Notes: generated by a model from the sequence alone, not told the origin. Shown: positions 9,844-64,000, numbered from the stretch's first letter. The stretch is DNA of 64,000 nucleotides from a virus (IMGVR_UViG_3300046820_001270:256001-320000), one strand, 5' to 3'. Translations and numbers: made by a program.

Positions 9844-12753
9844 ATGGCAAGTAATAACAGAGTTTTCGTGTCTCCAGGTGTCTACACATCTGAACTCGAT
9901 TTAACATTTGTAGCACAGAGTGTAGGTGTTACAACATTAGGTTTAGCGGGTGAGACTTTAAAAGGTCCAGCTTTCGAACCTATTTTAATTTCTAATTTTG
10001 ACGACTTTAAATTGTATTTTGGTTCAACATCTCCTGAAAAATTTGGTGATGGTAATCCAAAATATGAATTAGGTTACGTAGCAAAATCGTATTTACAAGA
10101 ATCAAATCAATTGTTCGTAACAAGAGTATTAGGTCTTACAGGATATAAACCATATAAAACATTCGGTATAAAAACTATCGGTGGTGTTATTTTACAAGAA
10201 TATGTTAGTGGTTTTACCTTTGAGGTTAATACAGTGTCAAGTACTACTTTTGACAATACACCTCAAGTTTATGAAAAATTATTTGATAAACCGGCGTATG
10301 ATGGTAAAACAATTACCGAATATATTATTTCAAATTTTAGTGGTTTTACAAGTGCTGATGCCGGTAAATGGTTTGTTTTAGGTAAAATACCTGATGGAGA
10401 ATCATTACCAAGTGCCTCAAAAGAATTAGTTTCTCCATTAACTGGAAAATATAATTCTGAAAATTATAACACTAAAGAATGGTATAATACATTGTTTAAT
10501 TTATCAACACCAGGAGATACAACAACAGTAGATTCCGTTTATTCTTTTATATTTGAATTTATAAGTGAAAGTGGTTCTACTAGATTTGACGTTACAAGAT
10601 ATGAATATGATGCACAATTAGCCGAAGACTATCATAATGTGGTGGTTGCAGCTATTAGACCAAGAGGTGTTTATAGTGGTCAAACGTTAATTCATGAAGT
10701 TACTGGTAATACAAGTTTCACATTAACTGAAGTTTCAGGTAGTAATTTAAATTTCAATCCATTAGGTGAATTTACAATTAATGTAACAGGTTTCACAGAC
10801 GGAGCAAAAGAATTTACATGTACATTTGATACAACATCTTCAAAATATATTTCTAAAGTATTAGGAACAGAACCATTTGATAAAGATCGTGGTAATTATC
10901 CTGTTTATGTTCACGAAACATACCCTAATTACTTAATGGCAGCATATCAAAGAGGTTTAATTAGAGGTATCTCTATGGAAGCTTCTTATGAATTAGAAGG
11001 TAATAACTTCTTAGATTCTTGGGATACCACAATTTCACCAATGGTTGTATCTGAGGTTCGTGGTGGTAACGTTGCGGATTTATTCCAAGTTATCACAATA
11101 TCTGATGGAGAAGCTGCAAACTTCCAAGTTAAAGTTAATATTCAAAATATTAATTTAGAAACAATGGAATTTGATTTAGTAGTTCGTGATTTTAACGATA
11201 CTGATGATAATCAAGTTGCTTTAGAGAAATATTCAAGATGTTCAATGAATCCTGATATGCCAGGTTATGTGGCTAAGAAGATTGGTACATCTGATGGTGA
11301 ATATGCGTTAGTATCTAAGAGAATTATGTTAATGATGGCGGACGGTGCACCTGTAGATGCTGTACCTGCAGGATTTAAAGGTTTTGCGAATAACGAAGCT
11401 TTTGGATCTGATAACGATACTTTTGGTAATATTATCTACAAAACAAGATATAACGACGCGGGTGACGTTGAAACATATGACGTATCAGGTGCTCCGAATA
11501 TTGAATCAGGAGATAAAGTAAGAAAAGTAATGTTAGGTTTATCAAGTACATCTGGATTTGACCAAGATTTATTGAAATTTAAAGGTGCAAGTGGTACAAC
11601 TGAAACATTTGGTTTTCACTTGTCAACAAATGCTTCAACAATCCTTGATACAAACGGAAAACAAATTTTCCAAACTACATCATACGATTTAGAAGGTCAA
11701 ACAGAAGAAGACACAAACAAATTAACAAATATTAACTATCGTAAGTTCTCATTCGCAGTTTACGGTGGTAGAGACGGTTGGGATATCTATAGAACAACAA
11801 GAACAAATACAGACGCTTATATCTTTGGTAAAACAATCTATAAGTCAGGTCATACAGTAAACGGTGGTGTGTTTAGTTCAAATGTAGGTAATTCTGATTA
11901 TTATGCTTACTTACAGGCTATCAAAACATATGAAAACCCTGAGGCAATTGATATTAACGTATTTGCGACCCCTGGTATTAACTTCCAAGAACATAGTTCA
12001 TTAGTTAACCAAGCAATTGACATGATCGAATCTGATAGAGCGGATTCATTATATATTATGAACTCACCTAATATCACAGGTGCTACCGCAACTGATGAAA
12101 TAGTGTCTTCTTTAGATAATGCTTCAATAGATTCTAACTACTCAGCAACATATTGGCCTTGGATCCAAGTAAGAGATACAGATAACGCAACTCAATTATA
12201 TATCCCACCAACAGGTGAGGTAGTTAAGAACATTGCCTTAACTGACAATGTGTCTTATCCTTGGTTCGCAGTTGCGGGTTATAGTAGAGGTTTAGTAAAT
12301 GCGATTAAAGCGACTAAGAAATTGACTTTAGACGATAGAGATGTATTATATAAGAACAGAATTAACCCAATTGCAACATTCTCTGATACAGGTACCATTA
12401 TTTGGGGTAATAAAACATTACAAGTTAGAGAATCGGCTTTAGATAGAATCAACGTAAGAAGATTGTTATTAAGAGCAAGAAAGTTAATTTCGGCAGTTTC
12501 TGTGAGATTATTGTTTGAACAAAACGACGAACAAGTAAGAAACGAATTCTTAAGATTGGTAAATCCTATCTTGGATGCAATTAAGAAAGAAAGAGGTTTA
12601 TACGATTTCCGTGTAACAGTATCTAACGATCCTGAGGATATTGACGCAAACACAATGAGAGGTAAGATCTACATCAAACCAACTCGTTCTCTTGAATTCA
12701 TTGACGTAGAGTTCGTGATTACTCCAACAGGAGCTTCATTTGAAAATATCTAA
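9844..12753 (+). CDS. Contractile tail sheath protein (T4 gp18-like), 969 aa
   Basis: N-terminal SPGVYTSELD; C-terminal YWPW, PWFAVAG, NRINPI, WGNKT, RINVRRL, LFEQND. Confidence 0.95.
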   Translation: MASNNRVFVSPGVYTSELDLTFVAQSVGVTTLGLAGETLKGPAFEPILISNFDDFKLYFGSTSPEKFGDGNPKYELGYVAKSYLQESNQLFVTRVLGLTGYKPYKTFGIKTIGGVILQEYVSGFTFEVNTVSSTTFDNTPQVYEKLFDKPAYDGKTITEYIISNFSGFTSADAGKWFVLGKIPDGESLPSASKELVSPLTGKYNSENYNTKEWYNTLFNLSTPGDTTTVDSVYSFIFEFISESGSTRFDVTRYEYDAQLAEDYHNVVVAAIRPRGVYSGQTLIHEVTGNTSFTLTEVSGSNLNFNPLGEFTINVTGFTDGAKEFTCTFDTTSSKYISKVLGTEPFDKDRGNYPVYVHETYPNYLMAAYQRGLIRGISMEASYELEGNNFLDSWDTTISPMVVSEVRGGNVADLFQVITISDGEAANFQVKVNIQNINLETMEFDLVVRDFNDTDDNQVALEKYSRCSMNPDMPGYVAKKIGTSDGEYALVSKRIMLMMADGAPVDAVPAGFKGFANNEAFGSDNDTFGNIIYKTRYNDAGDVETYDVSGAPNIESGDKVRKVMLGLSSTSGFDQDLLKFKGASGTTETFGFHLSTNASTILDTNGKQIFQTTSYDLEGQTEEDTNKLTNINYRKFSFAVYGGRDGWDIYRTTRTNTDAYIFGKTIYKSGHTVNGGVFSSNVGNSDYYAYLQAIKTYENPEAIDINVFATPGINFQEHSSLVNQAIDMIESDRADSLYIMNSPNITGATATDEIVSSLDNASIDSNYSATYWPWIQVRDTDNATQLYIPPTGEVVKNIALTDNVSYPWFAVAGYSRGLVNAIKATKKLTLDDRDVLYKNRINPIATFSDTGTIIWGNKTLQVRESALDRINVRRLLLRARKLISAVSVRLLFEQNDEQVRNEFLRLVNPILDAIKKERGLYDFRVTVSNDPEDIDANTMRGKIYIKPTRSLEFIDVEFVITPTGASFENI

Positions 12754-12777
12754 TCTAAAAGGAGATATAAAAAGAAG

Positions 12778-12806
12778 AAGGGTATCAGAAATGGTACCCT
12801 TTTTTT
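12778..12806 (+). terminator. Rho-independent terminator after the sheath gene
   Basis: Stem aagggtatc / ggtaccctt (one G-U pair), 6-nt loop, followed by a T run. Confidence 0.75.
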
Positions 12807-12814
12807 ATGTGGAA

Positions 12815-12830: not shown

Positions 12831-12866
12831 TTTTATATAAAGAAAAAATAATTATACTTTACCCAG

Positions 12867-13082: not shown

Positions 13083-13571
13083 ATGGCCGATTTATTAATG
13101 AAAATGCCGACACCTTACGAACCAAAAAGGGTCAACCGATTTATCGTAAGATTTAACTCATCTTTGGGTATAAACGAATGGTACATATCTGCAGCTTCTA
13201 GACCAAGTGCTAAAATCAACTCAGTTGCAATTCCTTTCTTGAACACTTCAACATATGTTGCAGGTAGATTTGAATGGAACGAAATTAAAGTGACTTTTAG
13301 AGATCCAATTGGTCCTTCAGCATCACAAGCACTTATGGAATGGTTCCGTTTACATGCTGAATCAGTTACAGGTCGTATGGGATATGCTGCAGGTTATAAG
13401 AAAGATGTAGAATTGGAGATGTTAGATCCGACAGGAGTTGTGGTTGAAAAATGGTTATTAGAAAACTGTTTCTTAACTGACTTAAACTTTGGTGAATTAG
13501 ATTACAACAGAGATGAATTAGCTAATATCACATGTTCTTTGAGAATGGATAGATGTATTTTGATATACTAA
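13083..13571 (+). CDS. Tail tube protein (T4 gp19-like)
   Basis: 162 aa directly after the sheath gene; EPKRVNRF, GRFEWNEIKVTFRD, YKKDVELEMLDPTGVVVEKW, L-R-M-D-R-C. Confidence 0.92.
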   Translation: MADLLMKMPTPYEPKRVNRFIVRFNSSLGINEWYISAASRPSAKINSVAIPFLNTSTYVAGRFEWNEIKVTFRDPIGPSASQALMEWFRLHAESVTGRMGYAAGYKKDVELEMLDPTGVVVEKWLLENCFLTDLNFGELDYNRDELANITCSLRMDRCILIY

Positions 13572-14568: not shown

Positions 14569-16452
14569 ATGCCTAATTATTCAAAAATTTTAAAAGAATC
14601 AAGAAACGCTCAAGAAGCCATTGATAAATGGAAAAGTCAAAACAATAGAGTAATTGACGGAGCAACTGAAGCGTCTTTTAGAAATGAACCGGCATCATCA
14701 TTTAAAGGAGGTAGTACTATGAGTAGTGGTGATGAAGAAGTATCGGGTACAATATCTAGTCCGTATGATGTTTTAAAAGCAGGTAGAGGTAGATCGACCA
14801 TATCTGAAATGAGTGGTCAATATAAAGTAAAAACAGATGACTTAGGTGGATTTAATGTTGAAATAGAAATATTAAAACAACTTAAAAGAGAATCTGATTT
14901 ACATACTGAGATTAATGAAAAAATGGGTATTACTGGAGAATTGTCCAGAGTATTCAGAGATACCTTATTAGATACGGTACCCAAGGCTGCATCACTTAAC
15001 TATGATATGGGGAATATCGCAGAAATGGTAACCCAATTATCGGCAAATACAGGTAAATTTAATTTAATCGCGGAAAGAACATTAGAACGTTCATTTGAAA
15101 CTGCTAGAGCATTCGGTTTAACATTACCTCAACTTGCGGATGCGATGAGTGAATTTGAAAAAGTTGGTTATGGTGCCTCAGATACACTTAAAAAAATTAA
15201 TAAAGCGGGAATTGATACACTTAGTCTTGGTTTAAATTCAAAAAAACTTACACAAGAATTAAAAGATAATATTGGTAAATTAAATGAATATGGATTCGCA
15301 AATGGAGTTGCTGGTTTAAATAGAATGGTACAAAAGGCAACAGAATTTAGAATGAATATAGCCGAATCATTCAAATTGGCGGATAAAGTAATGAATCCCG
15401 AAAGTGCAATTGAATTGACTGCAAATATGCAAATGTTAGGTGGTGCAATTGGTGACCTTAATGATCCACTTAAATTAATGTATATGGCAACTAATAATGT
15501 TGAAGGTTTACAAGACGCATTACATGGGGCGGCCGCTGGTTTAGCAACATACAATAAAGAACAAGGAAAATTTGAAATAGTAGGTGCTAATCTAAGAAGA
15601 GCAAAAGAAATGGCATCTCAATTAGGTATATCATACCAAGAATTTGCGAAAGGTGCGGTCGCGGCAAACGAAAGAATTGCTGCAGGTGAAGCGTTAGCCT
15701 CCAAAGGATTTAATATTAAAGATGACGAAAAAGAATTCTTAACCAACTTAGCACAAATGAAAGATGGTGAAATGCAAATCGTTATCCCAAAATCATTAGA
15801 AGATAGTTTAGGAAAAGAATTAGGAGGAGAAAAAGAAATTAAACTAAGTCAATTAACTAAAGATCAAATAGATAAGTTAGTACAATATCAAGAACAGTTA
15901 GAGAACAAAACCGCAGAAGAATTGGCTAGAGATATGTTCAATTCATCAAAGAACATAGAATTATATACACAACAAACGACATTAGCATTAACAAAATATG
16001 GTAAAGATATAACTTTAGGTAAAAATGAAAGACCTGACGGTCCTTTAGAGAGTTTATCTAGATTACAAGCTAAAGGAGGTAAACTTAAGGCGGATTTAAT
16101 ATCGAATAATCCTGAATTTTTAAAAAATCTTTTTGAAGAAACTTTTGGACAGGCTTTTCAAGGGACAAATGGTTTAATAAATGCGGTTAAAATGGGATTT
16201 AGTGGACTTACAATTGCGGGAGAATCTCTAGTTCAAAAATTAGAACAGTATATAAAAAATACTCCTAACGAGAAATATGATAAAAAGGTGAAAGAAGAAG
16301 AGAAATGGAATGAAAGTTCTAAAGTTAAAGATCGAAGAGTTACATTTAATAATAATCTTAAAATCACACATGTAGGATTAGGAGACGGTACGATAAGTGA
16401 TATCACCAAAACAGAAAAAGGGTATTTAACCGGTTATGATGATTGGGGATAA
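14569..16452 (+). CDS. Tape measure protein
   Basis: 627 aa, predicted helical and Ala/Gly/Leu/Lys-rich, in the canonical position after tube and chaperone genes. Confidence 0.75.
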   Translation: MPNYSKILKESRNAQEAIDKWKSQNNRVIDGATEASFRNEPASSFKGGSTMSSGDEEVSGTISSPYDVLKAGRGRSTISEMSGQYKVKTDDLGGFNVEIEILKQLKRESDLHTEINEKMGITGELSRVFRDTLLDTVPKAASLNYDMGNIAEMVTQLSANTGKFNLIAERTLERSFETARAFGLTLPQLADAMSEFEKVGYGASDTLKKINKAGIDTLSLGLNSKKLTQELKDNIGKLNEYGFANGVAGLNRMVQKATEFRMNIAESFKLADKVMNPESAIELTANMQMLGGAIGDLNDPLKLMYMATNNVEGLQDALHGAAAGLATYNKEQGKFEIVGANLRRAKEMASQLGISYQEFAKGAVAANERIAAGEALASKGFNIKDDEKEFLTNLAQMKDGEMQIVIPKSLEDSLGKELGGEKEIKLSQLTKDQIDKLVQYQEQLENKTAEELARDMFNSSKNIELYTQQTTLALTKYGKDITLGKNERPDGPLESLSRLQAKGGKLKADLISNNPEFLKNLFEETFGQAFQGTNGLINAVKMGFSGLTIAGESLVQKLEQYIKNTPNEKYDKKVKEEEKWNESSKVKDRRVTFNNNLKITHVGLGDGTISDITKTEKGYLTGYDDWG

Positions 16453-16502: not shown

Positions 16503-19500
16503 ATGCCAAAATACCTAGATTTTGATGCTACTAAGGATTTTAGGGATAAAATGTTAAATAGGACATTAAATCCTGTTTATGGAAAAAGTCCGTCCCCTAA
16601 AACTTTTACAAGTTCTAACTATAGTATCCAAACTTTAGGAGATAGTCCAAATTTATTATTACCTCAAGTTGATGGTAATAGGTCAAATGATCTATTAATA
16701 CCACAAAAATCAAATGTTTTTAAACCAAATGAATATTTTGTTAAAGACAGTATTAATGATATACCTAGAAGAGCAAATTTAAATTTATATCCATATTTTA
16801 TCCAAAGTGACGATAATTTAATCGGTATAATGTTAACTAAAAACTACGATACCGAGTCTGAATTATTTAAATTTGCTGCAAATAATATAAGAACCAACCC
16901 ACAAGGTCCGGTTTTAGCGAGAATCAGTAAAAATCTTAATACCGCAATTAATGCAAAAAATAAAATAGGTGAGGCTTTAGGTGGTAATACAACTACATTG
17001 ATTAATATTATTAGAGGTAAACAACCTTTAATTGAGGGAAATGAAAGTATCACGGTATCAAGTAGTTTATTAGGTAAAGGATTTGATTTTTTACAGACAG
17101 TTGCAGGAACTCAATTACCTTTTAGTACAATACCAGGTGATTATTTAACAAATCCCCGTAATCCGATTAATATAAGACCGACTAATGTTTCTACAGGAAC
17201 AAAGGTTTGGCAAGATTTAACAGGGGTTTTAGGGTCAATAGTGGGTATTCAAAGAAGACCACTACCATCAAGAAAACCATCTGATATTTTGATTGAACAC
17301 ATGGGTGAATCATCAAAAAATAGATTATTTGATTTATTGAGTTTTTCTAAATACGCACCAAATTACACAACCACTGCGAGATCACAAATGTCCACCAATG
17401 TTGGTAGAATCCCAAGTCAATTTGCACAAGGAATTAAGAACGCATTAGGAATGGAGGCACCAAATAGTGGTGCATATATAGGTGATGATAGAGAAAATGA
17501 TGTAAAAAATGCCACCACAGATTTGTTTAGTGGAAGACCTGTAAGAAGTAGTTATTATCTTACATTAATGTTTGATAAAGTTGCTGCAGAATTATTTCAT
17601 AAAAATAGAGGTATTACTGAAAACGGACCAATTGGTGGTAATTTAACTTGGTTAAGTAAAAATGGAACAACAAAAGACATTAGTTTTCAATATATTAATG
17701 AAGACATATCGACAAAATATAATTTTAGAGAGGATTCTATTTTAAATATTACACAACAAATATTAGACTCAAAACCACAAAATGGTGGAGATGCTTTATC
17801 ACATATAGGTCACGTATTAGATCAAACAAGTAGATATTTTAAAGATGGTGATACATTAATTTCCAGAGGTTCAGGTGTACGTTATATGGATAACTCAGGT
17901 AAAGATATTGGTGTTGAATATGCTAGAGTATGGACAAAAGATAGACCTTATTTTACATATGGTGATACAATGCCATTATGGAAAGAAAGTGTAAAAAAAC
18001 CATATTATAATGGTGCAACAGGAGGTACAGGAGATACTACTAATAGTAAAAGTAATTTTTATAGAAGAACAGGTATTAGAAGATTTGATGGTAGTGTAAT
18101 GACAAATCCGTGGAATTTAAATATTGCACCAATGTCAGACGGAACTACAAATCCAGAATTTCCTGGATCATCTAATATAATTAAAAACCCAAAAGGGAAT
18201 GGATTTTACGCTAAAAAATATATGTTATCTATTGAAAATTTAGCATGGGCGGCGTCAACACTTCCGGGTTATACTGTAAATGATTTACCATTTTCAGAAA
18301 GAGGACCAAATGGAGGCCGTGTTATGTGGTTTCCACCATATGATTTGAAAGTGTCTGAACAAAATAGTGCAAAATGGGAACCAAATACATTTTTAGGTAG
18401 ACCAGAACCAATATATACATATCAAAATACAGAAAGAAATGGTAGCTTATCATTCAAAGTAATTGTCGATCACCCAAGTATATTAAATTTACTAATAAGA
18501 GAACATTTTAAATCTGTTAATGATGAAGATGTTGATAAATTTTTAAACGCATTTTTTGCAGGAGCAAAGGATATTGATTTTTATAGTTTAATCAGACAAT
18601 ATTCACATTTAGATTCGGACGATATAAAAATGATTCAAAATTATCTAAATGACGGTGGAAGTCCTTCAGATATAAAAAGACGTAAAACAGCAACATCATC
18701 ACCTACACAAGATAATCCAGGTGGAAGTGATAGTTTTGATGCAAATAAAGATAAGGTAAATGAAACATTAAATTTTTATTTTCTAAACGCCTTTCCTGAA
18801 GCCGGAGACGACTTATTTAAATCAAATATGTCATTTGATTTAGTAAGTAATGGTACAATTTTAGATACCAAAATTCAAGAAAAAAATAAACAATTATTAA
18901 GAGAGTCATTAAATAAAATTATAAACAGTACCGACACAAAAGATATTGAGGATAGAGAAAGTATTTTTAAAAGAAAAGATATTCCAAGTGATCAAACAGG
19001 TACCACAATAAATAAAAAAATAACAGAACTTGAAAATATTTTTACCGAATCAACCACATCAAATAGTAAACTAATAGATATATTAACAAAATTAAAGAAA
19101 GATTTAAAAGATGAAAATATTGAAGGAGATGTTGTTGTAAATGTTAGCTCATATACATCAAAGGCGGGAGAGGAAAATTTAAATTTTAACCTTTCATTTA
19201 GAAGATCACATTCTTTATTTTTATATCTTTTTAATAATATCAAAAAAGACGGTACTAATATAGATTTAAAAAAATGGACGTTTTCAAAATTAGAGTCTGA
19301 CGTACCGGCAAAAGGAAAAGAAAGATTTGTTATTGAAAAAGAATTTTCAATAAAAGAATTAGGTTATAATGGAGAAGGAAGTGTAATTTTCAGATCAAAC
19401 AATTTTGGTGCAGATAATAATTTACAATCAGGATATTGTAATACTACAAATTATAATGACATTTCTTTAACATATTATGCTCCGAGTTCATATGGGTGTA

Positions 19501-47252: not shown

Positions 47253-47255
47253 TAT

Positions 47256-48638: not shown

Positions 48639-48662
48639 AAATTATATTTATAATAAAAGTTT

Positions 48663-52500: not shown

Positions 52501-55500
52501 TTGTTCAGTTAATGAATATTTTTCATATAGATTCTATTCAATACCAAACGTTAAATCAACCTCATATTTAGATATTGATTTTTCAGTTAAGTGTGATGTA
52601 TTCGACGAGAACACAGAATTATGTGAATTAGTGGGAGATGTTATTGTAAAAATAACAGGGGCAACAAACATAGGAGTACAAAAAAATGGAATAACAGGAT
52701 ATCCTGTATTTGTTCATTATAATTGTGAAACATTACAACAAAATTTAAATAACCCAAGTATTGTTATTAAACCGACAAACGAAGATGTTTGTACTTTAAT
52801 TATTACAGGTGTCACTGAAGTTGATGATATTGATTTAATTTTTACGGATGCGGCAAATAGTGAAATGAAAGTTAAGGTACAAGGATTACAAGTCAAAGCA
52901 ATACATGATCCTTTAGTAAGAAGTCATTTCCAAGAGTTTAGTGTGTCATCATATAAAGATGTTGAAACAACATCAGTCTTAATAGACACTCAATATGGTG
53001 TAACCTTTTGTGATAACTACACAGGATGGACAATCACACCAAAAATACAAACAAGAAGTTCATTTAACTATGGATTAAAAGATAATACAACAGTATTAGT
53101 GTATAGTGGTGCAACAAAAATTAAAAAATTAGTAAGTAATTTATCTGTTGGAGATGAATTAGTTTGTTTAACATACAACTCACCCGAATCATTCTCATAT
53201 CAAACATATTTGGACGGTAAGAATAATAATGATTACTCATTTACATATACTGAAGTTTCAAAAAAGATTACAGATATCGACTGTTTAGGTTCTGTTAAAA
53301 AAAGTGTCATTGTTGCAAGACCATCTAATGGAAATTCAAATGGAACTAATGACGAAACTTTTGAAGTATTACCAACTACAAGATTAAGAATATTCACAAA
53401 TAAAGATGTGAATGAAAATACTTTAGAAGTTTCCGAACTTAAAAGTCATCAATTTGTTAATAGATTACCTGAACATATTCAAGTAAAATCAAATGAATAT
53501 ATTGAACCATGTTGTGATCATAAACCAGATCCATATTTAACAGGTGATTATATAATTAATCAAGACGGTGAGTTATTGGAAGTTATTAGTGTTGATTTAA
53601 ATTATTGTGATTTAAGTTTATATAGAAATATTAATGTAAGCGGAACAACACCATCAGATTTAATTTTATTTAACGGTACAAATAGTACACAAATTTTATT
53701 ACAACATAAGTATCAACAATTTATTGAAGTTGATTTTGAACAACAACAATATTATACGGATTCTGAAAACTGTCCAACAACACCGACAATTGCAAGTTTA
53801 GAAAGAAATTATGGTGTAGTTTGTGATAGTACACCAATAGTCCCTTGTGGAACAGTTTATACAATACCAACTCCATTACCATCACCAACACCTACTTCAA
53901 CAGTTACACCAACCGCAACACCTACTCCTACAACGAGCCCAACACCTACACCTACACCAACTAGTACACCAACTCCAACTGGAACACCAACTCCTACACC
54001 GACACCTACACCGACAGGTTCTAGTACACCAACTCCTACACCAACAGGAACCCCAACTCCAACACCTAGTTCAACTCCAATTTGTGGATTTGGTGTGGAC
54101 GTGAATATTATTACAGCAACACCTACACCAACACCTAGTTCAACTCCAATTTGTGGATTTGATGTAGATATTAATGTAATTACCGCAACACCAACACCTA
54201 CACCATCAGGAACACCTAGTTGTTTATTTGATGTTGATGTGAACATATTAACAGCAACCCCTACCCCTACACCTAGCCCAACAACTGATTGTAGTTTTGG
54301 TGTTGATGTGAACATATTAACAGCAACCCCTACCCCTACACCTAGCCCAACTCCAACACCAACTAGTACACTTAATTGTGTATTTGATGTTGATACAATT
54401 ATAATAACAGCAACCCCAACACCAACACCTAGTCCAACTAGTACACCTATAGTGCCAACGGCAACACCTAATTGTGCGTTCGATGTTGATGTGAACATAA
54501 TAACCGCCACACCAACTCCTACACCAACACCAACTAGTACACCTATAATACCAACACCAACTAGTACACTTATAGTACCAACAGCAACACCTAATTGTGC
54601 GTTCGATGTCGAAGTAGATATTATTTCTGCAACACCGATACCTACTAGCACCTCAATAGTACCAACCGCAACCCCAACTAGTACACCAATAGTACCAACT
54701 GCAACACCAACATCAACTAGTACTTCAACACCTACCCCGACACCAACTCCTACACCAACTAGTACATCTATACCACCAACCGCAACACCTAACTGTGTGT
54801 TCGATGTTGATGTGAACATTGTTACCGCAACTCCAACTCCAACTAGTACACCTATACCACCTACCCCAACATCAACACCGACACCAACACCGACACCAAC
54901 ACCAACACCAACACCAACTAGTACGCCAACCCCAACACCGACTAGTACACCTGTACCACCAACACCAACATCAACACCTGTACCACCAACACCAACATCA
55001 ACACCAACATTCCCTGATTGTGTAACGAGAGTTACCTTTGATGTCGATAGTCCTGGTGATGTTAGTTACGTAGATTGTTGTGGAGTTGGAAAAGTTGTTA
55101 CTTTTGGTGGAACAGGTTTGGAAGTAATAATTGATTGTATACAATACGGAACATTAATAGGAGCGGGAGCACTTATATCATTTGTTGTTTATAGTAATAC
55201 ATCTTGTAGTTGCCCACCAACTCCAACACCAACCCCAACTCCTACACCAACACCAACTAGTACACCTATACCACCAACTAGTACACCAACTAGTACGCCG
55301 GTATTATATTCACATAGTTTAGGTTTTGTACAAGGAGCATTTGAAGATCGTTATGGTCCGGCGGCATGTTCAGATTACGTATTTAGTCCAACAACATATT
55401 ATTCTAATTGTTCGACGTTGTCAAATGGTTGTTATTTATATTCAAATAATTCAGGATCACCAGTAAGTCAATCAGGTTGGTTCTCCAACGGTAGTTCCTA

Positions 55501-56407
55501 TTGGGTATTAGATGGACCGGGTTTACCAATAAGAGCACAAGCACCTTGTCCAACAACGACCCCAACTAGTACACCTATACCACCTACCCCAACATCAACA
55601 CCGGTACCACCAACATCAACACCAACACCTATACCACCGACTAGTACTCCAATACCACCAACGCCTGTACCAGCAACTTCATTTACGGCATATATTAGTG
55701 TAGATGATGGATCAGGATCAGGAGCCAACGCATGTAATGGGGGAAATTTCAGTTCATATTTTGCATATCAATTTAATGGATTTTATGGAACAATGTGTGA
55801 TGCTAATAGTTATATTGAAGGTGCTATTATTCAAGCAGAAATTGATCCAAACGGGTATTTTTGGTTAAGTGAAGGATCAGGACAATCAAGATACTTTAGA
55901 AAATACGGTTCAACAAATAGAGCATATCCACAAGAGGGTTGTGTAAACTGTCCAACACCGGTACCACCAACATCAACACCAGTACCACCAACATCGACAC
56001 CTGTACCACCAACATCAACACCGGTACCTGATCCAACATCAACACCGGTACCTGATCCAACATCAACACCGGTACCTGATCCAACATCAACACCGGTACC
56101 AGCACCAACACCAACACCTGGAACATCATATACATATCGATTAGGACCATCATACACATTGGCAAGCCAAGCATGTACAAATTTCGGTATGGATTTGTAT
56201 ACTGAAGTCTTCGCAGCAACGAATGAAATAACTGAGGTACAACAATTCTTCACAGATTCTGGTCTAACAGCATTATATTTAGGAGAGAATGAAACTCACG
56301 CATTTCAATTAATGGATGGAGCTTTTCCAATTGGTATCTCATATTCAGGAAGAATTTCATACACAGGACAGGTATCGGATAGAACATTCTGTGCGGAACA
56401 ACCTTAA
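49583..56407 (+). CDS. Giant baseplate wedge / fibre protein (gp7 / P2 gpI-like N-terminal part plus about 850 aa PT-linked modular tail)
   Basis: [29 protein letters not shown] is the KGT motif of gpI/gp7-type wedge proteins. The C-terminal third is PT repeats and Cys modules. Confidence 0.65.
54083..54830 (+). repeat. Eight copies of C-x-F-(D/G)-V-(D/E)-(V/I/T)-x-(I/V) separated by PT linkers
   Basis: [80 protein letters not shown]. Confidence 0.92.
56011..56100 (+). repeat. Perfect 24-bp tandem repeat, 3.75 copies (TSTPVPDP)
   Basis: aacatcaacaccggtacctgatcc three times plus an 18-nt partial copy. Confidence 0.95.
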
Positions 56408-56456
56408 TAAAAAATAAAACAAAATAAACAGATATTTATAAAAAGAAACAAATAAT

Positions 56457-57020
56457 ATGACAATAACATTTACATTAACATCTGGATCATCAACAACATC
56501 TGCAGGTCCATTTAACATTTCAGGAACAACAAACGGAGGTGCATTAAATGGTGTATCAATAGCGACAGGAGTAACCAAAGCACAATTATTAGCGGGACAT
56601 ATAGTAACAAATGTTACACCTGAAAACATAACAGGTGGAACAATTGCAAGTACAGGAATTGCTTGTCCTTCATCAACAACAAATTGGTACGTTACACCAC
56701 CACCAACACCAACAGCAACTGCTGGTGTAGTAACATCATATTCATATCAATTAGGACCATCACACACAAATGCAACTTTAGCTTGTAGTGGTATTAATGG
56801 TGGTCAGGGAGAGATTGCAGATTTCTTAACCGAAGTATATGCTGCGACAGATCAACCAGGTGATGTGACACAATTCTTTACCGATGCTGGTTTAACAAGT
56901 GGTTACGGTGGAGAGAGTGAAATTCACGGATATTTCAGAACTGGAGGTCTTCAAGATTATACAGGACGAGTTTCACCAAGTGGTTTTGTAACAGAAAGAA
57001 ATCCTTGTATTGCTCCATAA
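56457..57020 (+). CDS. Small two-domain fibre/decoration protein sharing its C-terminal module with the upstream giant protein
   Basis: The TSYSYQLGPS...TEVYAAT...QFFTDAGLT...GR.S..G.V..R..C module is homologous to 56122-56407. Confidence 0.65.
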   Translation: MTITFTLTSGSSTTSAGPFNISGTTNGGALNGVSIATGVTKAQLLAGHIVTNVTPENITGGTIASTGIACPSSTTNWYVTPPPTPTATAGVVTSYSYQLGPSHTNATLACSGINGGQGEIADFLTEVYAATDQPGDVTQFFTDAGLTSGYGGESEIHGYFRTGGLQDYTGRVSPSGFVTERNPCIAP

Positions 57021-57044
57021 AATTAAAAAATACATAACAATATT

Positions 57045-57072
57045 AAAACCCCTTTATTATGAGGGGTTTTTT
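57045..57072 (+). terminator. Rho-independent terminator
   Basis: Stem aaaacccctt / gaggggtttt, loop tattat, followed by a T run. Confidence 0.8.
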
Positions 57073-57105
57073 ATTTAAATTCCATATAATACTATTTATA
57101 GAGAT

Positions 57106-59304
57106 ATGGGTTTAAATATTAGATTACATAACATAAATTTAAAGAATAACTTTAAATTATCATATAGAATTGGTAATACCTCAGGGGATGTTAATACAAT
57201 AAACTCAGGTTATACCAATTACACTATTGGTGCAACCTTGAGTGGAAATACAGTCTACCCCTCAAGTGATGTGAGAGATTACGAAACAAACCCAATTATT
57301 TTTACTGGTGCAACATTCAATACACAATATTGGTTTAAATTTTTAGATCAAACAACAGGTTTATATACAATTGAAAATATTAACACACACGAAAGTAAGT
57401 ATTATGAGTGTTATGATAAGATAGATTTTTATGTTACCGTAACAGGAGATATTTGTGATACACCTTTAAATGGTGATGTATTTAACCCAACAATTACATT
57501 ATATGATTATTTAAATGATACCGGTTATTACGGTAACCATTCATCGATGACGGGATCGACAGGTTCAGTTTATAACGTATATACAGGAAATACATCAGAT
57601 ATTAATGGAACTTCAACAGGATTAATTAAATCGGGAGCAACAACAAATCAAAGTAATGGAATTATACATTCATTTAATTATACGGTAAATTACCCACCAA
57701 CATTACCAATGCAACCATTATATGTTTTTGTTGAACATATGGACGGAAGTGTATGGAATGGTAATAACACAAACCCAAAAAAACAAGGAGGTTTTGAAGT
57801 GAAAAGAGTAAGAATGGAAAATATATTTGATTATGTTAGTACTAATGAAACTCAAACACCATTACCAACTAGTACTCTAATGGCAACACCAACTAGCACA
57901 CCAATATCACCAACCGCAACACCAACTAGTACTCCTATTATATCAACTAGTACACCAACACCTACACCAACTAGTACCCCTATAACACCAACTAGTACAC
58001 CAATTATACCAACTAGCACACCTATAACACCAACTAGTACTCCTATAATACCTACTAGTACACCTATAACACCAACTAGTACACCTGTTTCAACAACTAA
58101 ATTTATTGTTAAAAAATGTGCAGGTAGCGGTGGAGATGGTGTAACAAGTTATAAAGTCCAAATTGCACCAAATGCAACACTAAATAAATCTTATACATTA
58201 TATGGTGGAGTGGGAGTACCTGCAGATATGGATGGTTATAATTGTTGGTATGTTGAAAGTACTGTAACTGATACCACATCACCTGATTATACTTTAAATT
58301 ATCATGCGGAATATAACGATTGTGGAAGTTGTAGTTCAGTTTCATTACTAGTTTATTCGGGTAATTCATTACCAAACGTATGTGCATCAACAACCGAAAT
58401 AACAGTTTATTATAGAGGCACATTAGGTGTCGATACGATTTTATATACTACATCAAATCTTTCAGATGAAGTGGAAACTCCAGGTTATTATAAATCGGTA
58501 AATAATGGAGATATTTACCACGTAGGTGTTGCTGGTCAATATCCATATATACCATCACCAGGAGATGGTTGGATTACTGACATTCAACTTTGTCCAACAC
58601 CAACTCCAACACCTATTCCATCTTATACATTTAATTTATATGTAAGTGAAACAAGTGGCGCAGTTGCTTGTGCTGGAGGTGACACACCCGCAGGTTCTTA
58701 TCATCAATTTGTAATAACAGGTAATACAACTAATTTCTGTACATCAACATCATTTACTTGTGATTTTATAACATCATATGATCTTTATCAATTTTGGGTT
58801 AGTGATGGAACTAATTCAAGAAGTTTAACAAGAAATGGTGGTCAAGGTATTGAAACAGCATCACCTGATGGTGCTTGTTCTGTATGTGGATCAACTCCAA
58901 CTCCTACACCGACTAGTACACCTACTCCAACCCCAACAGCAACACCTTCATTACCGGCCGGAGTTTTAGGTTTTGGATCTTCAGATAGTAATTACCAACA
59001 ATGTGACGGACTTAATAACTATGAGTATAATAGAACATACTATGTTGATTTTACAAGTGCAAGAAGTATGGGTGGATATGTTGTTGTTTATTTAAATGAT
59101 AATTCAAACATACAATTACCATTTAATCAAAGTGCCACCTCTGCATCTTTAACCGTTTCATGTGGATGTGGGTCAGACTGTGCAAGTATAGAATATGTAA
59201 TGAATGTAATATATATCACACCAACCCAAACACCAGAACCATTATTACCTACATCTACACCAACTGAAGGAGGTGGAGGAGAGGTTCCACTTGAACCAAC
59301 ATAA
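57106..59304 (+). CDS. Modular PT-linked Cys-rich fibre/adhesin-like protein
   Basis: N-terminal beta domain, then four Cys-bounded modules separated by PT tracts. Confidence 0.65.
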   Translation: MGLNIRLHNINLKNNFKLSYRIGNTSGDVNTINSGYTNYTIGATLSGNTVYPSSDVRDYETNPIIFTGATFNTQYWFKFLDQTTGLYTIENINTHESKYYECYDKIDFYVTVTGDICDTPLNGDVFNPTITLYDYLNDTGYYGNHSSMTGSTGSVYNVYTGNTSDINGTSTGLIKSGATTNQSNGIIHSFNYTVNYPPTLPMQPLYVFVEHMDGSVWNGNNTNPKKQGGFEVKRVRMENIFDYVSTNETQTPLPTSTLMATPTSTPISPTATPTSTPIISTSTPTPTPTSTPITPTSTPIIPTSTPITPTSTPIIPTSTPITPTSTPVSTTKFIVKKCAGSGGDGVTSYKVQIAPNATLNKSYTLYGGVGVPADMDGYNCWYVESTVTDTTSPDYTLNYHAEYNDCGSCSSVSLLVYSGNSLPNVCASTTEITVYYRGTLGVDTILYTTSNLSDEVETPGYYKSVNNGDIYHVGVAGQYPYIPSPGDGWITDIQLCPTPTPTPIPSYTFNLYVSETSGAVACAGGDTPAGSYHQFVITGNTTNFCTSTSFTCDFITSYDLYQFWVSDGTNSRSLTRNGGQGIETASPDGACSVCGSTPTPTPTSTPTPTPTATPSLPAGVLGFGSSDSNYQQCDGLNNYEYNRTYYVDFTSARSMGGYVVVYLNDNSNIQLPFNQSATSASLTVSCGCGSDCASIEYVMNVIYITPTQTPEPLLPTSTPTEGGGGEVPLEPT

Positions 59305-59320
59305 AAATATTAAATAAAAA

Positions 59321-60592
59321 ATGAGTAAAGGAATAAAAATAGATTTTGGTAATGGAGGTTTCACTTATGATGTTTACACATCATTAAGTAGAACGTCTTG
59401 GAGTGATATACCATATATTTCTGGATTTACGGGTCAAACTTTAACAATTAATACTGATTTATTAGGTTATACGGGTATTACGGATACTGTTTTATATGTA
59501 AAAACAACTTGTCCTCATTGTAAACCACAAATAGTAAAAGTAAAATTAGAACCGGAACCAATATCATTAACAGGATCTACTGTAAATGGTACGTGTGAAA
59601 ATTGTGGTGATATCGATGAACCAGAATGTAACGGTGCAATTACTTTATATGTTTGTGGTGGAGTTAGACCATTTACATATCAATGGTCAGGAGCGACTAA
59701 AAGTGGTAAAGTTATCACATCAACAACAAAAGATTTAGGATATTTGGAGGAAGGTAATTATAATGTAATAGTTTCCGATAGTTATGGAATAACAGGAACA
59801 ACAGGTTTTACTATTGATGTAGCACCTTGTAATCCACCGATAAATTTAACAGCGGTAGCACCTATCATTTCAACCCCAACACCAACACCTACACCTAGTC
59901 CAACACCTACACCTACCAATACATCAACCCCTACCCCAACACCTAGTCCAACACCAACACCTACACCTACCGCCACAGATAATGACGGAAGTATTTTATT
60001 AGTCTCTAGTTCATCTAGATCTTCGGCTTGTAATGAATATGAAACAGGTACAAAAGTTAAATATTGGGTTATGGATGGTGGAGGATTACAAACGGGTAAT
60101 GTCTTGTGTCAAAATAATAACTGTTCAACTAAAGCACTAAATGGTTTTTATTCTGACGGTACAAATTATTATGAAGTAGGATATGGAGGAACAGGTGAAA
60201 TAATTAGTCAGGGACTATGTAGTGCTCTTGGTAATACAACAATCGGTTTAAGTAGTTCCGCAACATGTAGAACCGTTGGTTCTTGTAACGATAACGCTAC
60301 TTGTGGTGTTAGAATACCAATATTATTTAATAATGGAAGACCAAGTGCAACACAAATATTTGTCACAGTAACATCATCACAAAGTGGTGCAAGTGTTTCT
60401 ATATATAACGATTTCGGAGATAATGCTACTGGTTGTTTTCTTATTTATACTGAAAATAGTGGTTCTGGAACTATAGCGTTCACTTTAACACTTAAAACTT
60501 CCCCTGGAAATGAATATATATGTGATAGTGGTCTAATAAATTTATCACATAATAATGGGGGACAACCTTGGAGTATGTTAAATGACTGTTAA
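59321..60592 (+). CDS. Modular fibre/adhesin-like protein with an SprB-type repeat
   Basis: CNGAITLYVCGGVRPFTYQWSG...DLGYLEEGNYNVIVSDSYG matches the SprB repeat pattern C.G.I...V.GG..PY.Y.WS...L..L..G.Y.V.V.D..G. Confidence 0.65.
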   Translation: MSKGIKIDFGNGGFTYDVYTSLSRTSWSDIPYISGFTGQTLTINTDLLGYTGITDTVLYVKTTCPHCKPQIVKVKLEPEPISLTGSTVNGTCENCGDIDEPECNGAITLYVCGGVRPFTYQWSGATKSGKVITSTTKDLGYLEEGNYNVIVSDSYGITGTTGFTIDVAPCNPPINLTAVAPIISTPTPTPTPSPTPTPTNTSTPTPTPSPTPTPTPTATDNDGSILLVSSSSRSSACNEYETGTKVKYWVMDGGGLQTGNVLCQNNNCSTKALNGFYSDGTNYYEVGYGGTGEIISQGLCSALGNTTIGLSSSATCRTVGSCNDNATCGVRIPILFNNGRPSATQIFVTVTSSQSGASVSIYNDFGDNATGCFLIYTENSGSGTIAFTLTLKTSPGNEYICDSGLINLSHNNGGQPWSMLNDC

Positions 60593-60615
60593 AAATAGTA
60601 AAATAAAAATATAAA

Positions 60616-62118
60616 ATGGCACAAACATTAACAATATCGTGGGGAGCACCTAATAATGATAATTCACCACAACAAGTGACGGGTTATACTTTAAGTTATA
60701 AAAAGACAAGTGAAAATGTTTACACAAAAATAACGGGAATTTTAAGTGGAACCACAAGTTATGTTTTAGGTGGATTAGATGGAGGAACAAACTATGATAT
60801 TTGTGTACAATCAAATTGTACCCCAAGTTGTGTTAGTGAAAAAGTGTGCACTACAAAAACAACAAACGCAGACCCAACCCCAACACCAACTAGTACTTCC
60901 ACACCGACACCAACACCTACACCAACCCCTACAGCCACTAGTACACCAACTCCAACTCCAACCCCAACCGCAACACAAACACCAACTCCAACTCCAACAT
61001 CTAATTGTGTAACATCTGTACAATTTGAGGTAGTTAGTGGAGGTGATGTTAGGTATATAGATTGTTGTGGTAATACACTATATCCTCCCAATTTCGGTAT
61101 TGGACCACAAGTAATAAACGATTGTATTCAAAATGGTTCATTATTCGCAGTTGGTGCAAGTATTACGGATATATCTTATGGATCAACGCCTTGTAGTTGT
61201 GTGTCAACCCCAACCTCAACACCAACTAGTACACCAATACCACCAACCGCAACACCATTTGCGACAATATTAAATAACGTTTATGTTAGTGATCCATTAA
61301 CTAGTACTCCAACCGAACAAGATTTAACTTTAGCAATAGAAGACGCTTGTGAGGGTAATAGTAATATTAATACATTCTTAGGTGGTCCTGCAACGATGAC
61401 AGTATACGGTTCCAGTATTTGTGATGCGTCCGCTATGTTTGATCCAAGTACAATTATTCAGCAAGATGTGACATCAGGAGGAATTATTATTTTAAGACAA
61501 TTAATTAATAATTTTGGTGGAAGTGGAGGAAATAAATTATGGTACAGAAAATTCCAAAGATCTGTAGGTGTAAATGTTAATATGTATACACCTATTGGTG
61601 GTTGTTTAGAGTGTGGAGTACCAACCCCAACAGCAACCGTACCGCCACAAATTACAGTTAATATTTACGGAAGACAAAATATTCCATATAATGCCGTATC
61701 AAATAATTTACAATTAGTTTACCAAACATATAGTTCAACTTTAGGCCCACTTAATCATACATCATCAGGTGTACAAAAATCATTAATAGAAGGAGAAACC
61801 TTCTTAGTAAGTCCAAATGTAGATGCTGGCGGTTATTTGAATTTAGGTTTGTATTTAAGGGAGACAAATGGTGCATGTGATTATCTTGAGGTTAATGTAA
61901 ATGTATTTGTCGCCGGTGCTTATTTAACAAGTAGATTTACTGACTCTACAGGTTCATTATTAAGCGATTCTGGATGTGGTTTAGAAGGATCATTGAATGG
62001 AGTAGGTATACCGGTAAGTCAAGCAATAGATGTATATATTAGCCCAACAGCGACAGGTGTGTGTTTTGGATCTGCTCTTACTCCACCAGGGTTAGAGTGT
62101 TTAACAACCAATGAATAA
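60616..62118 (+). CDS. Modular fibre/adhesin-like protein with an N-terminal fibronectin type III domain
   Basis: LTISWGAP...VTGYTLSYK...TSYVLGGLDGGTNYDICVQS is the FN3 W-x-x-P / Y / L-x-P/G-x-T-x-Y pattern. Confidence 0.7.
   Translation: MAQTLTISWGAPNNDNSPQQVTGYTLSYKKTSENVYTKITGILSGTTSYVLGGLDGGTNYDICVQSNCTPSCVSEKVCTTKTTNADPTPTPTSTSTPTPTPTPTPTATSTPTPTPTPTATQTPTPTPTSNCVTSVQFEVVSGGDVRYIDCCGNTLYPPNFGIGPQVINDCIQNGSLFAVGASITDISYGSTPCSCVSTPTSTPTSTPIPPTATPFATILNNVYVSDPLTSTPTEQDLTLAIEDACEGNSNINTFLGGPATMTVYGSSICDASAMFDPSTIIQQDVTSGGIIILRQLINNFGGSGGNKLWYRKFQRSVGVNVNMYTPIGGCLECGVPTPTATVPPQITVNIYGRQNIPYNAVSNNLQLVYQTYSSTLGPLNHTSSGVQKSLIEGETFLVSPNVDAGGYLNLGLYLRETNGACDYLEVNVNVFVAGAYLTSRFTDSTGSLLSDSGCGLEGSLNGVGIPVSQAIDVYISPTATGVCFGSALTPPGLECLTTNE
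60994..61237 (+). repeat. Dispersed repeat copy B (6-Cys module cassette)
   Basis: About 90% identical to 46695-46935. Confidence 0.92.
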
Positions 62119-62143
62119 AATAAAATAAAGATATTTATAACAT

Positions 62144-64000
62144 ATGAGTTTTTTAAATAGTAGTAATTCAGAATTTTTATCGGCAAGAATAACCTCAAGA
62201 GGTAGAAATGCCATTGCAAAGGGTAATTTCAATATTGAATATTTCCAAGTTGGAGATTCTGAATTTGACTATAATTTACCTTTTACAGCATTAACAGGAA
62301 CCACTAATCACCAAAAAGTGTTTACACCTTTTGAAAATGAAAGTGGAGTAAAATACCCTTTTTCATTAGATAGTTCCTTATCAACAACATACGGTAATCC
62401 AATTTTAAACAATTCAATTACACCAATACGTAATGTTATGGGACCTGCGGGGTTTGTTTCTGATTATAAAACATTAGATGATGTAACAATTGCTTGTCCT
62501 GTTGAAAAAGTATATTATTCGGCAATAACAGGAACAAATACTTTTATTTTCACACATACAAGTAATGAGGTTGATTATTTAAATAAAGTTAATCAATTCC
62601 AAAACGCGGAATATGTTACATTGGTTACCGATCAATTTGGAGGAACTAATTTACCTATAATAACTGGTAACAGTAATAGTTTTATCTATAAAAAAGTAGA
62701 TTTTAATATTGTAACGGGAATAACAACAGGATCGACAACCGGTTATACAATAACATTAACATTGGATAGAAGTACCCCTATATTAACAGGATTAACAGGA
62801 TACGCACAAGTAGTCCGAAATAAATGTGAAATTGAGTATCCATTATCAAATGAAGTATCTCCTGTTTGTTCACCTGAACCATATGATCCAATGGGACAAT
62901 TAAATCCATGGACATTGAATGTTGTTTGGGGACAAAAACCAATTGGTGGTGATTACAATGGAACAGACGAAAGTCTATCTGGTTATACAAGTAATCAATT
63001 TATTTCTACTAAAAATTATTTAGGTTATACAACAACAGGACAAACGTTTTCTAATTTTACAGGTGGAACAATAACAGGTACCACATTTAAAAATTCATTC
63101 AATGAGTTAATTGAAGTTTTACCAACAGAACAAAGAGTTATTGCAATTATTCATTATTCTGAATTAGGTGATTTAAGAAATGACCCTGAAAGATTTTTTA
63201 AATATGATGATTACATTAGTAGTAAAACAGGTATAACAGGAGATGATTTATCTGTTATAACAAATGAAGATGGTGATGATATTAGTGATACTGATTATTT
63301 TGAAATTTATATTCCTTTCATTTACTATCATAGAAATACAACAGATACATTTGGTGCGAAATTTACAATGGATACAATTGACTATTATGTTAAACCAGTT
63401 TCAGGAACAACAGGTTCTAGATTTGAATTAAAGTTTAGATATTTGTTAGATGAACAAAATAATAAAGTAGGTAAAGTATTTGTCAACAATAAGATTGTAG
63501 TATTTGATGATCAAGAATTGGTTGCAATTTTAGATTACAGATCAAATAGAAGATATACATTACCTTCACCAAAATTAGGATTAACACCAAGTGATGGTGT
63601 TGCGGAACATTCAATGTTACCGACAACAGGTATGACAGCTTGGGTTACATATATGTTTGCCAATACAAGTGGAGATACTTTAAATTCATTACCTTGTAAT
63701 TATTTTAACAAAATATCAAGTAACACTATCCCATCACAAATTACAATGAAGTTTAGTGGAAATTCATTTTCTAATATGTCAACATCATTGTCGGGAGTAA
63801 AAGACGGTTTTGTTGCAAATAAGTTCTATGCGTTAATTCAAACAGGAACAACACCATCTCCAAATCAATGGAAGAAAATTGATATAACATCTCAAATACC
63901 TGGTTACACAACAGGTTATATTAATCCAACAGGATTAACAGGTGTTTCATTTACGATTAATTATTCAGGATATACAGGTGGAACTTATTTTGATTTTGAA
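62144..64000 (+). CDS. Large structural (tail/baseplate-associated) protein, 3'-truncated by the window edge, not in the ORF track
   Basis: ATG at 62144 after TATTTAT at 62132; the frame is open for 619 codons to the edge (MSFLNSSNSEFLSARITSRGRNAIAKGNFNIEYFQVGDSEFDY...). Confidence 0.8.
   Translation, partial: MSFLNSSNSEFLSARITSRGRNAIAKGNFNIEYFQVGDSEFDYNLPFTALTGTTNHQKVFTPFENESGVKYPFSLDSSLSTTYGNPILNNSITPIRNVMGPAGFVSDYKTLDDVTIACPVEKVYYSAITGTNTFIFTHTSNEVDYLNKVNQFQNAEYVTLVTDQFGGTNLPIITGNSNSFIYKKVDFNIVTGITTGSTTGYTITLTLDRSTPILTGLTGYAQVVRNKCEIEYPLSNEVSPVCSPEPYDPMGQLNPWTLNVVWGQKPIGGDYNGTDESLSGYTSNQFISTKNYLGYTTTGQTFSNFTGGTITGTTFKNSFNELIEVLPTEQRVIAIIHYSELGDLRNDPERFFKYDDYISSKTGITGDDLSVITNEDGDDISDTDYFEIYIPFIYYHRNTTDTFGAKFTMDTIDYYVKPVSGTTGSRFELKFRYLLDEQNNKVGKVFVNNKIVVFDDQELVAILDYRSNRRYTLPSPKLGLTPSDGVAEHSMLPTTGMTAWVTYMFANTSGDTLNSLPCNYFNKISSNTIPSQITMKFSGNSFSNMSTSLSGVKDGFVANKFYALIQTGTTPSPNQWKKIDITSQIPGYTTGYINPTGLTGVSFTINYSGYTGGTYFDFE

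Follow-up and report, generated by a model that had tools for sequence, protein, structure and literature searches.

Outer tail proteins of a freshwater jumbo phage lineage are enriched in a short Ser/Thr-Gly-x-Thr motif, a candidate signal for O-glycosylation by phage enzymes

The outer tail, baseplate and fibre proteins encoded in a 64,000-nt stretch of DNA from an uncultured lake phage (IMGVR_UViG_3300046820_001270:256001-320000; hereafter the window) carry the tetrapeptide [ST]-G-x-T 5–15 times more often than expected by chance. Hundreds of relatives share this excess. We number this motif from its Ser/Thr (position 0), through Gly (+1) and any residue (x, +2), to Thr (+3). It was first pointed out, as a candidate modification sequon, in a reading of the window based on hand counts (the original prediction). 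We propose that hydrophobic-[Ser/Thr]-Gly-x-Thr is a short linear motif kept at high copy number in the loops of outer tail proteins, namely in an insertion of the sheath, at the periphery of the hub, in peripheral baseplate proteins and in fibres attached to the baseplate. The motif would serve phage enzymes as a recognition signal or acceptor when they attach a post-translational mark in the host cytoplasm; the Ser/Thr at position 0 would be O-glycosylated, and the candidate enzymes are three core glycosyltransferases of the super-clade of freshwater jumbo phages to which the window belongs. We infer the attachment of the mark, its acceptor residue and the enzyme that reads it from the patterns described below. 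That the motif is an O-glycosylation-type acceptor signal read by these glycosyltransferases is our leading reading, held tentatively and with a little more doubt than conviction.

We counted the motif in 15 virion open reading frames (ORFs) of the window (13,289 amino acids, aa) and compared the counts with shuffled sequences. Pooled, these ORFs contain 125 copies, compared to 25.2 ± 4.6 in global shuffles that keep composition (z ~21). Shuffling within blocks of 30 or 15 residues gave expectations of 23.7 and 26.1 (z ~21 each), so local patches rich in Thr, Ser or Gly do not explain the excess. The carriers and controls are listed here, with expected counts after the observed ones:

2–1300, plus strand: 3′ part of a 604-aa Thr-rich protein of no known family; 5 motifs in the window part, 1.8 expected.
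9844–12753, plus strand: tail sheath, with Pfam Phage_sheath_1 (680–859) and Phage_sheath_1C (864–960); 9 motifs, 1.18 expected, p<0.0005.
13083–13571, plus strand: tail tube, an internal control; 0 motifs in 162 aa.
14569–16452, plus strand: tape measure-like protein of 627 aa, an internal control whose identity comes from the original prediction; 1 motif, 0.45 expected.
16503–21296, plus strand: 1597-aa tail/baseplate protein without Pfam or PHROG match; 5 motifs, 1.26 expected, p=0.01.
21606–27521, plus strand: 1971-aa protein without Pfam or PHROG match, called hub in the original prediction; 8 motifs, 1.45 expected, p<0.0005.
36902–38734, plus strand: gp6-like inner baseplate wedge (PHROG 219/6), a motif-free control; 0 motifs in 610 aa.
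38789–42769, plus strand: 1326-aa baseplate protein, 3′ of the wedge; 5 motifs, 1.19 expected (477 and 110 in 80 orthologs).
42769–44661, plus strand: 630-aa peripheral baseplate protein, the densest carrier; 15 motifs, 0.94 expected (938 and 60 in 80 orthologs).
44661–47252, plus strand: 863-aa fibre-like protein with Pro-Thr linkers; 12 motifs, 2.57 expected.
47256–48638, plus strand: 460-aa fibre/baseplate protein; 8 motifs, 0.93 expected (448 and 85 in 60 orthologs).
49583–56407, plus strand: 2274-aa fibre protein; 20 motifs, 4.93 expected, an expectation raised by Pro-Thr linkers.
57106–59304, plus strand: 732-aa fibre-like protein; 7 motifs, 2.64 expected, p=0.015.
59321–60592, plus strand: 423-aa Cys-containing protein of the fibre module; 7 motifs, 1.69 expected, p=0.0025.
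62144–64000, plus strand: fibre protein cut by the window end (619 aa), with tandem motifs, the second densest carrier; 17 motifs, 1.37 expected.

The hand counts of the original prediction for the 630-, 619-, 460- and 732-aa carriers, the sheath and the hub (15, 17, 8, 7, 9 and 8) were all reproduced, as were its controls: none in the 753 aa of RNR, one in 458 aa of DnaB, two in 965 aa of PolB, none in the tube and one in the tape measure. As had been stated, the 630-aa protein has 20 [ST]G dipeptides, 15 of which continue with xT. The prediction's rough figure of one or two copies per 600 aa from composition agrees with our computed 0.9–1.4, the enrichment persisted under the composition-matched shuffling that it had named as a check, and the tube and tape measure are, as claimed, without enrichment. 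The sheath motifs start at residues 122, 166, 243, 278, 287, 315, 583, 668 and 745; six are N-terminal, within a clade-specific N-terminal insertion, and none falls in the last 224 aa. Six of the eight motifs of the hub-labelled protein cluster at residues 968–1156 (nt 24.5–25.1 kb). In the fibre genes at 44661–62118, (Pro-Thr)n linkers dominate the word counts (P-T-x-T 196 vs 16 expected, T-P-T 174 vs 16); long linkers of this kind inflate the expected number of [ST]G.T, and the enrichment of the fibre ORFs is therefore understated.

The excess is specific to this pattern. Across the 15 virion ORFs, 11 control patterns (T.G[ST], [ST].GT, G[ST].T, [ST]G..T, [ST]G.S, AG.T, NG.T, DG.T, [ST]A.T, [ST]N.T and [ST]S.T) all occur at expectation, and [ST]GT. 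is at most marginally above it (35 vs 25, z ~2). When we scanned every gapped word of three residues without bias, TG.T and SG.T ranked highest after removal of the words of (Pro-Thr)n linkers. Following an [ST]G dipeptide, the residue at +3 is Thr in 46% of cases, compared to a Thr frequency of ~12%. The residue at −1 is hydrophobic at 64% of sites (background 32%), x is almost free, and position 0 is Thr at 69 of 124 sites (56%). Together, the global and local shuffles and the control patterns rule out chance or composition as the cause.

Duplication and DNA-level signals can likewise be set aside. When we compared the flanks of 123 sites, no pair shared 9 or more of 20 flanking residues, which excludes duplicated modules. 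Position 0 is encoded by AGT, TCN and ACN codons, several of them unrelated, and the motif uses codons as the background does, which excludes a signal in the DNA. Unrelated flanks and ordinary codon usage indicate that selection acts on the protein.

Related genomes allowed us to follow the motif through whole phage proteomes. Two complete relatives were each put together from fetched pieces: G001 (IMG/VR contig 3300042391_000634, 335.6 kb), which is collinear with the window and has core proteins 90–97% identical to those of the window phage, and G002 (310.5 kb, with direct terminal repeats). A third relative, G004, is 93% complete, and G003, G005 and G006 are partial. In G001 and G002, just 8–9 ORFs each are significantly enriched, all of them in the tail/baseplate/fibre module, and the motif total of the other ORFs is as expected (G001, 106 vs 102; G002, 44 vs 31). 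Tube, tape measure, inner wedge and replication proteins show no such excess. Orthologs of individual carriers repeat the pattern of the window: in G001, the 1971-aa protein has 10 motifs (1.5 expected) and the fibre protein that the window truncates, 692 aa long there, has 18 (1.53 expected). The sheath carries 7 motifs in G001 and 7 in G002, compared to 9 in the window, at partly different positions. Orthologs of the gp6-like wedge fall below expectation (4 vs 29 in 71 orthologs), and in distant clades the wedge together with a few neighbouring non-exposed families does so as well (6 vs 44). This depletion, to 0.14–0.46 of expectation, may reflect avoidance; as it comes from few protein families, we do not use it as evidence.

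Beyond these genomes we analyzed 160 related IMG/VR loci, 80 of them close (630-aa orthologs 46–84% identical) and 80 from distant clades. All 80 close loci retain the excess, at 2–12 times expectation in structural ORFs, with the strongest enrichment in G002 (12-fold). Searching 1.84 billion representatives with a profile, we found 595 members of the 630-aa family, whose distant full-length members (21–32% identity) carry 1.6 sites each, compared to 0.37 expected; at the 80 distant-clade loci, neighbouring large ORFs are enriched 2- to 6-fold (1,892 vs 500). Outside this range the excess disappears. The virion proteins of T4 show none (17 vs 11.7), and neither do the baseplate and fibre genes of three outgroups, LR756508 (uncultured), Flavobacterium phage immuto and Microcystis phage Mel-JY01, whose wedges are homologous to the gp6-like wedge of the window at 25–28% identity. 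The outgroup sheaths hold 3 motifs (LR756508) and 0 (Mel-JY01). T4 and the three outgroups thus rule out a generic property of T4-like tail proteins: the motif excess is lineage-specific yet widespread in the super-clade.

Individual sites turn over rapidly. In 79 aligned orthologs of the 630-aa protein, a mean of 11.9 sites per protein is spread over 57 alignment columns, of which ~23 are 'hot' columns occupied by 15–94% of sequences. Ser and Thr exchange freely at position 0 of the hot columns, and sequences lacking the motif there have either near-variants (NGxT, SGxS) or unrelated residues (NPxQ, TQxP, VLxG). On the tree, parsimony assigns the motif 230 state changes, compared to 17–87 for nine control patterns. 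We judged turnover from columns of intermediate occupancy and from parsimony against these controls, and excluded low-frequency columns as possible chance background. In pairs of orthologs at 40–60% identity, Thr(+3) is conserved at 0.59 compared to 0.39 for other Thr; at position 0 a hydroxyl residue is retained at 0.69, compared to 0.52 for other Ser/Thr. Conservation of the motif Gly (0.62) falls short of that of other Gly (0.72), and x (0.40) is below the overall level (0.55). This pattern places the sites in fast-evolving surroundings and points to selection on the defining residues rather than to a structural glycine. Copy number is maintained by selection while positions turn over, and the sheath behaves alike.

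The clades also differ at +1. In the window clade [ST]G.T is enriched 6.3-fold and [ST]A.T is unenriched (214 vs 199, 1.07-fold), whereas in the distant clades [ST]G.T (3.8-fold) and [ST]A.T (4.05-fold) are both enriched, in all 65 loci with enough sequence. The distant members of the 630-aa family itself show the same preference (123 vs 28 for [ST]G.T and 50 vs 10.7 for [ST]A.T). Because the proteins are homologous across clades, a constraint imposed by the fold should not differ between them; a reader with drifted specificity would explain the difference between G-only and G/A clades.

To place the sites in a structure, we modelled the 630-aa protein with AlphaFold2 from 89 diverse homologs (mean predicted local distance difference test, pLDDT, 86.3; predicted template modelling score 0.85); an earlier run with 28 close orthologs (pLDDT 46) served as a first look only. 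Foldseek found no fold match for the model in the PDB, and the protein may have an undescribed baseplate fold. The model places every one of the 15 sites in a loop or at the junction of a strand and a loop; Thr(+3) is in coil at 14 sites and the motif Gly at 13. Their geometry varies: there are two hairpins, sites 442 and 446 share one loop, those at 289, 379, 427, 456 and 512 are in well-ordered long loops, those at 148, 240 and 244 in low-confidence, probably flexible loops, and site 309 is in the turn of a short helix directly before a strand. The distance from the previous strand ranges from 0 to 68 residues.

The original prediction had named a recurring beta-turn as the alternative to a modification. 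In its general form, this is a structural loop motif without any reader, in which the Ser/Thr caps a strand, the Gly turns the chain and the Thr starts the next element. The hydrophobic preference at −1, seen at 64% of sites in the window and alike in distant clades, would suit such a motif, as would sites 172, 232, 442 and 446, which the model puts exactly at strand ends or hairpins. The site at residue 74 is ancient, occurring in 20 of 77 distant homologs with the consensus NxxxGxT, identical hot positions recur among distant homologs, and all carriers are beta-rich. However, placement in the predicted model is heterogeneous, with most Thr(+3) in coil rather than starting strands, and the motif Gly is not only less conserved than other Gly but replaceable, by Pro, Lys, Asp, Gln or Leu in orthologs; a single conserved beta-turn is not what these sites show. 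Homologous folds in the outgroups and T4 lack the excess, distant clades favour Ala at +1 where the window clade, on these very folds, does not, and the motif occurs in proteins as unrelated as the sheath insertion, the hub and the fibres. A short linear motif with a reader fits this pattern better than a single structural turn, and we consider the purely structural explanation, weakened in these ways, unlikely.

If the motif is read by an enzyme, the phage genomes offer candidates. Three core glycosyltransferases, a GT-A/GT2 enzyme of 259 aa (PF00535), an adjacent GT-B enzyme of 351 aa and a GT-B-like protein of 407 aa, are encoded in the window's own metagenomic contig (JGI 3300043419, Ga0451736_0000008, 334,429 bp; window base 1 is record base 289,711) at record 275,871–282,127, which is 7.6–13.8 kb upstream of the window, with a dUTPase, PhoH and a sigma-like gene as neighbours. 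All three are present in this contig and in 8 of 8 motif-bearing genomes tested, which comprise G001–G003 and five distant-clade contigs, the latter with enzymes 41–55% identical. They are better conserved than the 630-aa baseplate protein, and all three are absent from LR756508, immuto and Mel-JY01. The neighbours of the 351-aa GT-B in the Atlas carry Glycos_transf_1, and its nearest solved relative, at a weak 29 bits (E 5.6e-6), is AmGGT (PDB 8xsg). Agt homologs of AmGGT lengthen glucose already attached to peptides, in the cytoplasm (PMC12159676), and the relation is consistent with protein glycosylation. A search of 50,697 deposited phage records gave no match to the 351-aa GT-B; in IMG/VR its only relatives were at least 68% identical, and P0010 as the sole query of that database gave no match. 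A gene of the ThyA/hydroxymethylase family is missing from three of four near-complete genomes (G001, G002 and G007) and present in G004, which argues against glucosylation of hydroxymethylcytosine DNA, as in T4, as the role of the enzymes.

The original prediction had left open whether a phage or a host transferase adds the mark. Virions assemble in the cytoplasm, and the known O-glycosylation system of Bacteroidota, the phylum thought to host this super-clade, is periplasmic; a host transferase is therefore unlikely. A phage transferase is plausible in view of the three enzymes encoded upstream, which occur in every motif-bearing genome tested. A broader version, in which the whole super-clade shares a private O-glycosylation code served by this three-enzyme set the sequon (G or G/A) drifted together with the enzymes, and sheath, baseplate and fibres are coated with sugar, is a possibility that we hold with somewhat more doubt than belief.

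Several observations weigh against glycosylation by these enzymes. Their association with the motif amounts to one phylogenetic contrast, and many other clade-specific genes share it. The enzymes lie among early-type genes, and their targets could be DNA, precursors of the host envelope or something else. In G001, the major capsid protein is only marginal (3 vs 0.6), and five long Gly/Ser/Thr-rich fibres of the same genome (226–245 kb) are unenriched (5–11 vs 4–13); exposure alone thus does not predict the motif, and the claim of the original prediction that surface virion proteins are enriched applies to sheath, baseplate and fibres, short of the capsid protein and this second fibre set. Non-virion phage proteins show no overall avoidance of the motif. 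Finally, the hydrophobic −1 (64%), small +1 and Thr at +3 would also suit a strand-exit turn.

Specificity, loop location, selection on copy number and drift between clades fit any reader, not just an enzyme. The motif might serve non-covalent binding, either as a docking site for a decoration, assembly or chaperone protein or as small anion- or carbohydrate-binding nests that help the tail adhere to host surface polymers. Flavodoxins offer an analogue, since their T-G-x-T loop binds the phosphate of flavin mononucleotide (FMN). The FMN-phosphate loop is written T/S-x-T-G-x-T (PMC7084853), and at the −2 position of the phage motif Ser is at background and Thr is not enriched, unlike in that loop. 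We identified no candidate for such a partner, copies in tandem or overlapping at a spacing of 3–4 would be odd for a folded binding nest, and free choice of Ser or Thr at position 0, with +3 strictly Thr, is seen more typically in an acceptor with its determinant. We regard docking as improbable. The same evidence for a reader, together with the requirement for a hydroxyl residue at position 0, would equally suit a sequon for another covalent mark (phosphorylation, acylation or nucleotidylation) added by a different clade-core enzyme. No candidate for such an enzyme was seen, though none was sought, and three conserved glycosyltransferases without an evident DNA-modification partner are simpler candidates, which makes another mark quite improbable.

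A further enzyme family came into consideration through G001, whose variable 38-kb island (262–300 kb) encodes two TibC-like heptosyltransferases, a GT4-FkbM fusion, a radical-SAM protein and a carbamoyltransferase, as well as a collagen-like fibre with an S74 chaperone. Both heptosyltransferases match TIGR04414, at 284 and 264 bits with a curated cut-off of 200, and have GT9 and TibC_1st domains. The motif might then be the acceptor of TibC/Aah-type heptosyltransferases (BAHT), which like our proposed system hyper-O-glycosylate in the cytoplasm, modify Ser before small residues and act on beta-rich adhesin loops (TibA, AIDA-I); TibC modifies Ser, not Thr, before Gly-Gly or Ala-Ala in beta-helix loops (PMC4358343). 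This Ser-only acceptor, with no Thr at +3, differs from a motif with 56% Thr at position 0, and the modelled 630-aa carrier is not a beta-helix. TIGR04414/BAHT is absent from the complete G002, from G004 and from the partial G003, G005 and G006, and none of the island proteins has a homolog in G002, which is nonetheless enriched 12-fold. The collagen-like fibre beside the heptosyltransferase gene, a more natural substrate, has 1 motif compared to 4.9 expected. Because the island is absent from genomes that keep the motif (G002 and G004), it is ruled out as the general reader; that the motif is the acceptor of these enzymes is very improbable, although BAHT could act on some sites.

Among known systems, the general O-glycosylation system of Bacteroidota is comparable in its short Ser/Thr sequon (3–4 residues) and in belonging to the presumed host phylum. 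Its sequon, D-(S/T)-(A/L/V/I/M/T), requires Asp at −1 and is modified in the periplasm, whereas the phage motif has a mostly hydrophobic −1 and belongs to proteins assembled in the cytoplasm; D[ST][ALVIMT] is, if anything, depleted (38 vs 56), in line with the original prediction's view that the two motifs differ. The cytoplasmic NGT/alpha-GlcT (Agt) system, which glycosylates Pasteurellaceae adhesins, is linked to the phage by the resemblance of the 351-aa GT-B to AmGGT. That system starts on Asn in N-x-S/T, and N[^P][ST] is unenriched here (177 vs 181). In mycobacteriophages, glycosyltransferases encoded by the phage are proposed to add sugars to its virion proteins (Freeman et al., 2023, Cell Host Microbe, cited after PMC12619734), and the likeness lies in such phage-encoded enzymes (here three) and in proposed decoration in the cytoplasm before release. 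As described in that account, mycobacteriophage glycans are at the C-termini of capsid and tail-tube subunits with no short sequon defined; here, the candidate signal is a four-residue loop motif on sheath, baseplate and fibre proteins, with none in the tube and a marginal number in the capsid protein. A further parallel is offered by the 'moraphages', freshwater jumbo phages with predicted Flavobacteriia (Bacteroidota) hosts; four orthogroups of putative glycosyltransferases, their function unknown, belong to the moraphage core genome (Perez-Hernandez et al., 2025, PMC12619734). Both are large aquatic phages with core glycosyltransferases; the moraphage paper mentions no virion-protein motif. 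We found no published description of the [S/T]-G-x-T motif in the literature, as the original prediction had supposed.

If it serves as a sequon, the motif would provide the first acceptor code defined for the glycosylation of phage virions, and would give a job to core glycosyltransferases of a large and abundant group of lake phages, whose function is openly stated to be unknown (PMC12619734). Sugar-coated virion surfaces would become predictable from sequence alone. Sugars covering the tail would also matter for the recognition of hosts, for how well virions withstand proteases and grazing, and for the reading of predicted fibre structures. A short, portable cytoplasmic O-glycosylation tag with matching enzymes would, if the proposal is true, be a useful tool for glyco-engineering. 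Should the motif be structural or a docking site, it would still be an unusually strong lineage-specific short linear motif that needs explaining.

The window encodes PolB, a T4-type sheath, tube and tape measure, large hub proteins and the gp6-like wedge, and the replication genes SSB, UvsX-like, exonuclease, DnaB and RNR. The large baseplate and fibre genes stand in a row, none with a family match. No deposited phage is close to the window phage, the top sheath matches being 31–37% identical. The Cys-bounded segments of the 423-aa fibre module protein may resemble the SprB/PKD-like repeats of Bacteroidota gliding adhesins, and the next ORF (60616–62118) has an fn3 domain in Pfam.

The 604-aa Thr-rich protein at 2–1300, upstream of the region that the original prediction had covered, is mildly enriched as well: at full length in its own contig it has 6 motifs compared to 2.55 expected, and its G001 ortholog has 8 compared to 0.84. 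Its gene belongs to a variable spot between the early block and PolB (own contig L285:4495-9986), which lies upstream of the window and extends into it. There, the window's contig has three plus-strand genes, encoding a 594-aa protein, a 529-aa collagen-repeat protein and the 604-aa protein, which ends at window position 1300; at the equivalent spot G001 has just a 519-aa ortholog of the 604-aa protein and a 289-aa ORF.

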